Shown piece by piece: positions 48,041 through 57,717 of a stretch of DNA of 64,000 nucleotides (within the stretch, counting starts at the first letter, position 1; each line of letters opens with the position of its first letter). Position numbers and translations under genes: made by a program. The stretch lies in assembly GCF_009931435.1 (NCBI RefSeq), contig NZ_CP043414.1. One strand, given 5' to 3'. The stretch comes from Escherichia coli. Its GTDB lineage: Bacteria > Pseudomonadota > Gammaproteobacteria > Enterobacterales > Enterobacteriaceae. The notes beneath the pieces were generated by a model. That model made no database searches and was not told the origin of the DNA. It saw only the letters and a program-made list of their open reading frames with translations.

Positions 48041-51000
48041 ATGGCAGGGAAAGCGCATGGGAATGGCGATCGTCGGGGCGATAAAACCATATGTGGATTG
48101 GGGGATCGTTTACGTCGTCTGACCGCCGGTATTTGCCTGATAACACAAACTATTTTCCCTGTTATGGCTGCTGCCCCTACGCATGTTAACCCTGCGCATT
48201 CGGATACTGCCGCGTCACTGATCCTGTCGAACGTTAAAACTATTCCATACACCCTGGGGGCGTTGGAATCGCCACCAACGGTCGCGGCACGCTTTGGTAT
48301 TACCGTTGATGAATTACGTCGCCTGAATCAGTTCCGTACTTTTGCGCGGGGCTTTGACAATGTGCGTCAGGGCGATGAAATAGATGTGCCCCTCATTAAC
48401 AGTAACAGCCCTGAAGCGCGCAACCTGAAAGCAATGCAGATGGAGCGCGACGGCAAAGATCCGCAAATGCAGGTCGCGGAAGTGGCGCAGCAAAGCGGAA
48501 CACTTTTAGCGCGCGATATGGACAGCGAACAGGCTGCGAGTATGGCGCGTGGCTGGGTGGCTTCTTCTGCATCTGCGCAGGCAACGGACTGGCTCAGTCG
48601 TTGGGGAACTGCCCGGGTATCTCTTGGTGTTGATGAAGATTTCAGCCTTAAAAGCTCGTCATTTGAATTTCTCCATCCGTGGTACGAAACGCCGGATAAC
48701 CTGGTCTTCAGCCAGCACACACTTCACCGTACGGATGATCGCACTCAAACCAACCACGGTATCGGCTGGCGTTATTTCACATCGAGCTGGATGTCTGGCG
48801 TCAATATGTTTATCGATCATGACCTGACCCGCTATCACACTCGAACCGGGATGGGCGTTGAATACTGGCGCGATTACCTGAAACTGAGCGGCAACGGTTA
48901 TCTGCGCCTCAGTAACTGGCGTAGTGCACCGGAACTCGACAATGACTATGAAGCACGTCCGGCGAACGGGTGGGATCTTCGCGCCGAAGGCTGGTTACCG
49001 GCCTGGCCGCAGCTGGGCGGCAAGTTGGTCTATGAACAATATTATGGCGATGAAGTGGCGCTGTTTGGTAAAGACGAGCGACAAAATGATCCTCACGCGA
49101 TTACCGCAGGTTTGAGTTACACCCCCGTTCCCCTGATCTCCTTTAGTGCCGAGCAACGGCAGGGAAAACAGGGAGAGAACGACACCCGAATTGGTATGGA
49201 GCTGACGCTGCAACCCGGTCAATCACTGCAAAAACAGCTCGATCCGGCTGAAGTAGCAGCACGGCGTAGCCTTGTAGGCAGTCGCTATGACCTGGTCGAT
49301 CGTAATAACAATATTGTCCTCGAATATCGCAAGAAAGAACTGGTGCGGCTGACGCTGACCGATCCGCTGAAAGGCAAGCCGGGCGAGGTTAAATCGCTGG
49401 TTTCTTCCTTACAAACCAAATACGCGCTGAAAGGTTATGACATCGAAGCCGCTTCCTTGCAATCTGCGGGCGGGAAAGTTGCTGTTTCCGGCAAGGATAT
49501 TCAGGTCACTATTCCACCCTACCGATTTACGGTAATGCCTGAAACCGACAACACTTACCCAATAACAGTTATAGCGGAAGATTCGAAAGGGAATTTCTCC
49601 CGGCGTGAAGAAAGTATGGTGGTTGTAGAAAAACCCACACTAAGCCTCGCTGATTCAACGCTTTCTGTCGATCTACAAATTCTGCTTGCGGATGGAAAAT
49701 CAATTTCAACGCTGACCTATACCGCGCGAGATTCCAGCGGCAAGCCTATCCCGGGTATGACATTAAAAACCCATGCGAAAGGTTTGCAAGATTTCGCCCT
49801 AAGCGAATGGAAAGACAACGGTAACGGAACCTATACCCAGTTAGTTACCTCCGGGAAGACGTCAGGCGCGTTGTCGCTGATGCCACAATTTAACGGCGAC
49901 GATGTTGCTAAAACACCAGCGCTGATTGCCATTGTGGCTAATATGGCATCCCGAGCGGACTCCATGATTGAAACAGACCAGAATAATTACGTCGCGGGTA
50001 AGCCGATAGGCGTAAAAGTGACCCTGAAAGATGAGAATGGCAACGGGGTTACCGGAAGAAAAGAACTTCTTAAACAGGCTGTTAAAGTAGACAACACGAA
50101 GACCGATGCTGTTAGTGCCTGGACGGAAGAAAGTGAGGGAGTTTACAAAGCAAACTATACGGCCCATCTCATTGGCGACAAATTAACGGCCCAGCTGACG
50201 ATGCCCGGCTGGCAAACCAAGCATTCGGATGCATTCAGTATTGCGGGTGATAAAGATACCGCCAAAATCGCAGCGATGCAGATCACCGCGAATAACGCAG
50301 TCGCCAGACGCGATCACAATACCGTCGCTGTGACGGTCAGGGACGTGCATCAAAATTTACTGCAGGGACAAAATGTTACCTTCACGGTCGTGAATGGTGC
50401 GGCGGTTTTTGCCGATCCAAATGGCGGTATTGTGACGACAGATAAAGACGGGATTGCCAGCGTTAACCTTGCCAGTGACCAGGCGGTAAACAGTCTTATC
50501 AAGGCCGAGATCAATGGCAGTAGTCAGTCTGTGGAAGTGAGCTTTATTACTGGCGATATCTCGCAGCTGACCTCCACCATCAAGACGGACGATGTGTCAT
50601 ACACCGCGGGTGGCAAGATAAAAGTGTCAGTTACCCTTATGGATGAGCAGAAAAACCTGGTGAAAGGGATGGCTTCGCTGCTGGTGGGTAGCGGTGTGGT
50701 CGAGGTGAGCGGTACAGATAAAAATGAAACGGGTAACTGGAGCGAAGAGTCTGATGGCGTTTACACCACCACCCGAACCGCGAAGATTGCTGGCAATAGC
50801 CATTACGCCACGCTGAAACTATCGACATGGAGTAGCGCGCAGCAATCCGATGCGTATGTCATCCGCGAAAGCGGAGCTGTGCTGGCTTATTCCTCTATCG
50901 TTACCGACAAAACGACCTATACCGCAGGCGGTGCGATTAAAGTTACGGTAACGCTCAAGGATAGCTATGAAAACCTGGTCGGGGGGCAACGAGACGCTAT

Positions 51001-57000: not shown

Positions 57001-57717
57001 AAATGGATATATTTGGGTGATGGCATATATGAGCGTACCTATATGGCCTACAAAGAAGGAGAGAACTTAAATTCATTTCTGCAGATTAACGGTTGGCGTG
57101 TAAACGGGCAACCTTCCTATACCATCCTTCCTTTTGTAGTAGTCGATTCTCTGAGTGTGAATGGTGCAATATTCAGGGCGATAGATGGTTTTCCTGAAAC
57201 AGGATTTGATGGGGCTAAATTCACCTTAGTATTAACCCATAATATGAAGAATACAGATTATGATTGGACGGCAGGCATCTATGGTATTAATGTTAACAAT
57301 AATGGAGAAGTCACAATAAGTCTGCCCCTAAATAGTGAAATCACTATTACCGGGAAACCAAAAGACGGTAAAGGGAATAATGTTGTATTCAAATTCAAGA
57401 TGAAAAAATGGTTTACTAGTTTAGGTGCTGCCAGTAATAACACTTGGGATATTATAAATACATCATGCAATAGCTATGGACAAGTGGCGTCATCTTTAGA
57501 ATTAGCGCAGCGACCAAGTAGTGGTGTAGTTCCACGAAAAGTAGGTACGTTGTGGGGAGAATATGGTAATTTGAAAGCTTATGGCAGTACATTTAGCAGT
57601 ACGGATTACTGGACAAGTACTGTACTTATAGGGGTTCACGAGAAATTCAATCCTGAAACTGGTATATCAACACCAGGATCAGGAAAGTCTTCTGGTTTGT
57701 GTGTGAGATATTTTTAA
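48041..57717 (+). CDS. air: Giant inverse-autotransporter (intimin/invasin-family) Ig-repeat adhesin, Air-like; reading frame interrupted by an apparent 1-bp deletion near 52430
   Basis: N-terminal LysM-like segment and intimin/invasin beta-barrel, then ~14 Big-type 97-aa repeats and a divergent C-terminal domain; two ORF-track pieces (48041-52453 and 52450-57717) join into one ~3,225-codon frame if one base is restored. Confidence 0.8.
51480..55560 (+). repeat. Tandem array of about fourteen 291-bp (97-aa) near-identical Ig-like repeats inside air
   Basis: Repeated ...VTFIADV(S/R)TA(K/Q)IADLVV...TVEISVTSQTAG... units; a copy at 52061 recurs at 53224, offset 1163 bp, i.e. four 291-bp periods minus one base. 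Confidence 0.9.

Follow-up and report, generated by a model that had tools for sequence, protein, structure and literature searches.

Within a stretch of 64,000 nucleotides (nt) from Escherichia coli (RefSeq assembly GCF_009931435.1, contig NZ_CP043414.1), hereafter the window, the coding region that runs on the plus strand from an ATG at 48041 to a stop codon at 57715-57717 is very probably the gene of the inverse-autotransporter adhesin Air, air, which is also named eaeX or iatC and belongs to type Ve, the intimin/invasin family. The gene and the eip island of which it is part have been described previously, and there is little new biology in finding them here (PMC6714894, PMC7058095, PMC4210603). 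As written in the window, the reading frame is broken by one missing base in a long array of similar repeats. This loss is somewhat more likely to be an artefact of assembly or polishing, through misplacement of reads in the array, than a mutation, because the site coincides with the edge of a paralogous copy and because an otherwise identical assembly is in frame.

Identification of the gene rests on several concordant lines. The NCBIfam equivalog-domain model for the N-terminal part of IatC (NF040978.1, Ve_IatC_Nterm) is matched over its whole length, positions 1-1065 of 1065, with 3040.1 bits for a cut-off of 2400. Three identity checks were all positive: a barrel, immunoglobulin (Ig)-like domains and synteny with nepI and eilA were found. 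An earlier note, written from the letters of the window, had proposed a giant Air-like inverse-autotransporter adhesin with Ig repeats, opening an island next to nepI, and the IatC model, the Pfam matches and the synteny with strain 042 all agree with that proposal. The locus between nepI and yicS is thus recognizable as an allele of air/eaeX/iatC, with which the eip island begins. In RefSeq, the copies of this locus in carriers are labelled either iatC or air (EaeX/Air). To judge from the alignments, "Air" and "IatC" are allele classes of one gene at one locus, differing mostly at the tip, because copies labelled IatC (2013C-4282, RMDEC465) share the tip of the window at 98.5-99.5% identity. 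The air gene is a typing marker for enteroaggregative E. coli. Its non-repeated 5' part (3.46 kb) is present in 754 of 5,426 complete E. coli genomes (14%), as a single copy every time. Among the same genomes, the best identity reaches 99.3% for the first 12 kb of the window, which begins at dnaA (17 records have at least 99%), and 98.0% for positions 40000-47950. Complete genomes therefore seem to include few members of the host lineage; 2013C-4282, which has an iatC of 14 units, is among the closest complete relatives.

The domains of the protein are numbered here on the 3,225-amino-acid (aa) product that is obtained after restoring the missing base, and they follow one another as listed below.

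48041-48175, plus strand: aa 1-45, an N-terminal extension with a hydrophobic segment resembling a signal peptide, ...LTAGICLITQTIFPVMAAAP; read from the sequence, inside the match to the IatC N-terminal model.
48236-48391, plus strand: LysM-like segment, putatively periplasmic, aa 66-117; Pfam LysM E 0.62, partial.
48485-49330, plus strand: inverse-autotransporter beta-barrel, aa 149-430.
49337-51517, plus strand: seven non-repeated Ig-like domains, aa 433-1159; matches to Invasin_D3, Big_1 and the self-profile.
51518-55560, plus strand: tandem array, 14 units of 291 nt, each unit coding for one 97-aa Big_1 domain; Tandem Repeats Finder and unit comparison.
55564-57129, plus strand: aa 2509-3030, a series of five diverged Ig-like domains with a length of about 104 aa; weak Invasin_D3 matches, periodic pattern.
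57154-57378, plus strand: Invasin D4-like Ig domain, aa 3039-3113; Pfam Invasin_D4 E 3.8e-12, alignment with 1CWV.
57379-57714, plus strand: C-type-lectin-like tip resembling invasin D5, aa 3114-3225, which contains Cys3143 and Cys3221; alignment with 1CWV.

The order is the inverted one, with the barrel (aa 149-430) in N-terminal position and the Ig-like domains and tip (aa 433-3225) behind it. The barrel is matched by Pfam IAT_beta (PF11924) on aa 149-423 with E 2e-108, and by sequence it matches two solved barrels, with E 2e-80 for 4E1T (invasin) and E 4.7e-67 for 4E1S (intimin). The peptide WRYFTSSWMSGVNMFIDHDLTRYHTRTGMGVEYWRDY, on which an intimin/invasin-type barrel had first been proposed, lies at aa 243-279, well within the Pfam match. 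Upstream of it the hydrophobic stretch LTAGICLITQTIFPVMAAAP at aa 27-46, picked out by eye, is a putative Sec signal. The LysM-like segment in between, also proposed at the outset, is a more delicate matter. It is described as a LysM domain in IatC/EaeX by InterPro and ScanProsite (PMC6714894, PMC7058095). Compared by sequence with solved structures it gives weak LysM matches, from E 0.012 (4UZ2) to 0.08. A single-sequence AlphaFold2 model, of low confidence (predicted local distance difference test score, pLDDT, of 61), has the order beta-alpha-alpha-beta, and a Foldseek search with this low-confidence model retrieves mostly LysM domains among its top matches, that of intimin included, at E 5e-3 to 0.5. 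Weighing against the assignment, the Pfam match stays under threshold (E 0.62).

Behind the barrel, the passenger is essentially a chain of Ig-like domains, about 27 in total when the Invasin_D3-like ones of about 104 aa are counted. Pfam recognizes many of them, as Big_1 (E 1e-14 to 1e-19, with about 1e-19 for each of the last three tandem units) or as Invasin_D3 (up to E 1.6e-19), and a profile made from the 14 units recovers all 14 together with two Big_1 domains that lie outside the array, at aa 745-845 and 1055-1159. The long run of Big-type domains that had been announced is therefore there, mixed with Invasin_D3 matches; the domain search having found both an IAT_beta barrel and Ig-like repeats, the proposal of an inverse autotransporter with Ig repeats stands.

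The C-terminus had been described as unique. It is not so, because it matches the D4-D5 region of invasin: the last 190 aa align with PDB 1CWV with E 1.7e-21, the lectin-like D5 being covered, and Invasin_D4 is found by Pfam. Cys3143 is aligned to an invasin cysteine, and Cys3221 stands five residues before the C-terminus, as in invasin. Pfam Intimin_C is absent from the matches listed, and the search with the C-terminal sequence matched 1CWV and no intimin chain. With such a tip, disulfide cysteines in place, the protein might be thought to be the functional equivalent of Yersinia invasin, binding beta-1 integrin and driving cell invasion. This is very improbable. In invasin, Asp911 and Asp811 are said, in work attributed to Hamburger et al. 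1999 and Leong et al., to be the integrin-binding residues. Here Val stands opposite Asp911 in the alignment and Ile opposite Asp811, the Ile having an Asp beside it, and the Air protein of strain 042 has Met at the Asp911 position. Since these positions are not conserved, integrin binding should not be assumed. Furthermore, the phenotypes in print are adherence and biofilm formation (PMC6714894, PMC7058095), and no binding to extracellular-matrix proteins was observed with over-expressed IatC (PMC6714894).

The frame of this long gene deserves a closer look. The earlier note had read it as a single frame of about 3,225 codons. With 9,677 nt, the region cannot be divided into whole codons, and the list of open reading frames (ORFs) displays two frames, which meet in the fourth unit of the array.

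48041-52453, plus strand: first frame of air/iatC, 1,470 codons, with a premature TGA at 52451-52453.
52432-57717, plus strand: second frame of air/iatC, the remaining 1,761 codons and the stop codon; 52450-57717 in the ORF list.
52430-52433, plus strand: frameshift site in tandem unit 4, GCA|CGG where GCA ACG or GCG ACG is expected.

One base is absent at 52431/52432, where the window reads GGTGCA-CGGCG and where all other units, as well as the relatives, have an extra base. Unit 4 is accordingly 290 nt long and reads GGCAGACGGTGCA-CGGCGAAT, the other units having GCA ATG GCG or GCG ACG GCG. At the level of the site itself (52427-52437), the frameshifted form is GGTGCACGGCG and the in-frame forms are GGTGCAACGGCG or GGTTCGACGGCG. 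Adding one base back restores a continuous protein of 3,225 aa. An uninterrupted full-length frame is thus not present in the sequence as written, possibly through an artefact. Taken at its word, this sequence would specify a product of 1,470 aa, in which the barrel is followed by about 10 Ig domains and the tip is lacking. The frameshifted state was looked for elsewhere: an exact search of the GTDB representatives with a 48-mer spanning it gave no match, the best identity in the 5,426 complete E. coli genomes for the surrounding 261 nt was 94.7%, and exact look-up of the 1,470-aa truncated product returned no record.

The surroundings of the missing base are telling, because it sits at the end of a long exact duplication.

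52034-52432, plus strand: 399 nt that recur without change at 53197-53595 (units 6 to 8); the frameshift marks the 3' end.

These 399 nt are the longest exact internal repeat of the array, and their last base is the frameshift position. In other carriers, the unit that shares the 50 nt located 3' of the site has GGC GCG ACG GCG or GGT TCG ACG GCG on the 5' side, always in frame, and an A occupies the missing position in each of the two parental unit types. In the window, sequence of the paralogous units 7 and 8 has overwritten a tract of at least 244 nt, and the frame breaks exactly at the 3' edge of this tract. A useful comparator is the draft assembly GCA_002965045.1 (contig PTRH01000010.1), one of eight assemblies that code for exactly the EilA protein of the window. 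It is 100% identical to the window over 46900-51600 (4.7 kb) and over 55500-64000 (8.5 kb). In the first 5,805 nt of the gene, only 35 positions distinguish it from the window, all of them within 52188-52431, the last one being the 1-nt indel, and its copy is a single in-frame ORF of 2,934 aa. The comparator lacks units 9, 11 and 13 of the window, which share exact stretches of 240-244 nt with other units or neighbours. This suggests that the array would be under-assembled in the draft GCA_002965045.1, a difference of a kind that short-read assembly could produce. As for the method, a global MAFFT alignment with the best complete-genome match could not place the indel, because the order of units differs between strains, and a unit-by-unit comparison was used instead.

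Several facts weigh against an artefact. The comparator has 11 units for 14 in the window, and may itself be mis-assembled in the array; the 2,934-aa product was found in it alone, hence with no second independent witness. Real disruptions of the gene exist elsewhere, one RefSeq copy being flagged as frameshifted and some being annotated as split genes. As a case in point, the A-run of ...AAGATGAAAAAATGG..., at the equivalent of about 57403, has lost 1 nt in both GCA_050501255.1 and GCA_026028335.2; their product has 3,127 aa as compared with 3,225 and ends just before the lectin-like tip. The A-run of the window is intact.

It is possible, if the less favoured of the two accounts, that the frameshift is real and results from a recent intragenic gene conversion, in which units 6-8 were copied over units 2-4 and an imprecise end lost one base. 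The breakpoint of the proposed conversion is a clean mosaic junction of two unit types, other carriers have disrupted copies, and the gene is accessory, being found in 14% of genomes. However, homologous conversion ordinarily terminates in register, the loss of 1 nt precisely at the edge of a tract is also what would be expected from mis-mapping of reads in polishing, an assembly with more than 13 kb of identical flanks is in frame, and the remaining genes of the island, eilA, eipD, eipC and eipB, are intact. Should the frameshift be real, the strain would make only a truncated adhesin of 1,470 aa, lacking the lectin tip, or the gene would be a young pseudogene; the downstream frame, having neither signal peptide nor barrel, could not be exported.

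A third account would make the interruption functional, either by ribosomal frameshifting at the site or by using the array as a reversible on/off switch, through recombination between units. The number of units does vary among strains (11, 13, 14, 20), and the exact stretches of 240-399 nt common to several units could support recombination. Yet no slippery heptamer is present at the site (G GTG CAC GGC), no obvious structure was seen 3' of it, though none was searched for, read-through needs a -1 shift, there is no simple-sequence tract of the type associated with phase variation, and the frameshifted state is known from one sequence only among the complete E. coli genomes and GTDB representatives searched, so that this account is hardly credible. 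Programmed frameshifting at unit 4 was rejected, for want of a slippery site. An artefact is the reading that we somewhat prefer, and the practical lesson is one of annotation: in a 4-kb array of near-identical units, a single-base frameshift is easily missed from translation alone. Outside the array the locus is the same in two assemblies, which differ within it, and calling this virulence marker "intact" or "pseudogene" needs support at the level of reads.

The array has a personality of its own. Tandem Repeats Finder counts 13.9 copies of a 291-nt unit at 51518-55560. The units are 77-100% identical to one another, with 62% G+C and a G+C content at third codon positions (GC3) of 0.77. A 261-nt unit probe finds between 1 and 19 places per genome (median 12) in the complete E. 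coli genomes, and a variable number of Big repeats in eaeX is already in print (PMC7058095). In terms of GC3 the gene is a mosaic, starting with about 0.53 at its 5' end, rising to 0.75-0.79 in each of the tandem units, then dropping to 0.46 in the C-terminal Ig domains and to 0.28 in the tip. The composition of the tip fits that of the AT-rich eip island (35-40% G+C). Possible causes of the mosaic, as far as base composition can tell, are a separate origin of the array or GC-biased gene conversion. One may go further and imagine that the missing base is real, and that the array is a recombination hot spot which changes the length of the stalk (11 to 20 units) and is able to break and later repair the adhesin, the GC3 of 0.77 being the footprint of GC-biased conversion in concerted evolution; such a scenario is unlikely. 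Antisense to the array, an open frame of 773 codons extends over 52920-55241 on the minus strand. It is most simply a by-product of stop-poor GC-rich repeats, and not a gene.

The gene is embedded in the following context, from the core genome on its left to the right edge of the window.

46654-47838, plus strand: nepI, core gene of the left flank; NCBIfam NF007578 NepI, 851 bits.
47839-48040, no strand assigned: spacer between nepI and iatC, not in K-12, 202 bp, 41% G+C.
57731-57758, no strand assigned: palindromic hairpin with a 12-bp stem in the gap between iatC and eilA, resembling a bidirectional terminator.
57769-59466, minus strand: eilA, regulator of the HilA family, intact; NCBIfam NF009037, 950 bits for a cut-off of 589.
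59669-61018, minus strand: eipD, IpaD/SipD-like tip protein, of the expected length.
61062-62213, minus strand: eipC, 383 aa, no family match, of the expected length.
From 62226, open to the window edge (64000), minus strand: eipB, YopB/SseC-like translocon protein.

Homology with K-12 ends after the AAG codon of nepI at 47833-47835, and the TAA stop at 47836-47838 already belongs to the island, so that NepI has 394 aa here for 396 aa in K-12. The AT-rich junction of some 200 bp that had been noticed after nepI corresponds to the 202-bp spacer. A promoter scan of this spacer gave consensus matches on the minus strand only, at chance level. The convergent arrangement with eilA, also noticed at once, was borne out, eilA lying on the minus strand at a distance of 51 nt. 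Comparison at the nepI junction is straightforward: nepI directly adjoins yicS in K-12, and in carriers the island is inserted between them, the order being nepI, iatC-eilA-eipD-eipC-eipB, a small ORF, a chaperone of the SycD/LcrH type (eicA), yicS, nlpA, yicL, setC and selC. This insertion is the eip (selC-B) island of the literature (PMC7058095, PMC4210603). Homologues of type III secretion translocators are found beside eilA, with no secretion apparatus in the window; the eip island has been linked to the distant ETT2 locus (PMC7058095).

Further to the left, between yicN and nepI, a RelE/ParE-family toxin and a helix-turn-helix antitoxin form a pair on the minus strand (45760-46426) that is not in K-12. 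With 1,716 carriers among the 5,426 complete E. coli genomes, it is over twice as frequent as iatC (754 carriers), and it is therefore not tied to the island. Rfam matches outside the gene comprise AsdA, antisense to dnaA (511-591, minus strand), the small RNA ES036 (6068-6110, minus strand), a ROSE_2 thermoregulator (16240-16312, plus strand), an element annotated upstream of ibpA in 042, and istR (30991-31120, plus strand). The Rfam search gave no match within 47-58 kb of the window.

What is known of the function comes from other alleles. IatC is surface-exposed and promotes biofilm formation upon over-expression (PMC6714894). Two papers, citing Sheikh 2006, state that eaeX and eilA mutants of strain 042 have less adherence and make less biofilm, and that EilA regulates the eip genes (PMC7058095, PMC4210603); findings of Sheikh 2006 are also relayed in PMC3256949. 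Expression of the adhesin is likewise described as controlled by the neighbouring EilA. It is from such alleles and from the type Ve family that we infer how the present protein would work. A Sec signal peptide would direct it to the periplasm, where the LysM-like segment may contact peptidoglycan. The N-terminal barrel, expected to have 12 strands, would insert in the outer membrane, and the C-terminal passenger would be threaded outward through it. A long stalk of about 27 Ig-like domains, 14 of them in tandem, would then present the invasin-type D4-D5 lectin-like tip for adhesion and biofilm formation.

Several well-known systems help place this gene. The nearest is that of enteroaggregative E. 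coli 042, in which Air was originally defined and for which the reference used was Air/EaeX WP_000907437.1 (NC_017626.1, 4259271-4270691). The comparison with Air that had been advised gives a barrel 99.6% identical, encoded at the same locus, between nepI and the convergent eilA, within the same architecture. Identity is 96.6% over aa 1-148 and 95.7% in the unique Ig region, and it is lower for the C-terminal Ig domains (89.8%) and for the D4-D5 tip (82.6%). Air of 042 has 20 units and 3,806 aa and is intact, whereas the window has 14 units and is frameshifted. IatC of 2013C-4282 (WP_106907699.1) has, like the repaired protein, 14 units and 3,225 aa, and its tip is 99.5% identical to that of the window. 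Its array is 95% identical overall, with the units ordered differently, the window copy alone of the two being frameshifted. IatC of E. coli SMS-3-5 (EcSMS35_4024; Goh et al. 2019) has 2,934 aa (PMC6714894). Intimin of enteropathogenic and enterohaemorrhagic E. coli (4E1S; LysM, 2MPW) has a similar barrel and a LysM domain, to which the putative LysM-like segment may correspond, and the NCBIfam intimin model matches aa 149-527, under its cut-off. Unlike intimin, the gene of the window has no Tir partner and no context of a locus of enterocyte effacement. Finally, invasin of Yersinia pseudotuberculosis shares with it a homologous barrel, a homologous D4-D5 tip with conserved cysteines, and the inverted topology. 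By contrast, invasin has four Ig domains and no tandem array, where the protein of the window has about 27 and is devoid of the aligned integrin-binding Asp.

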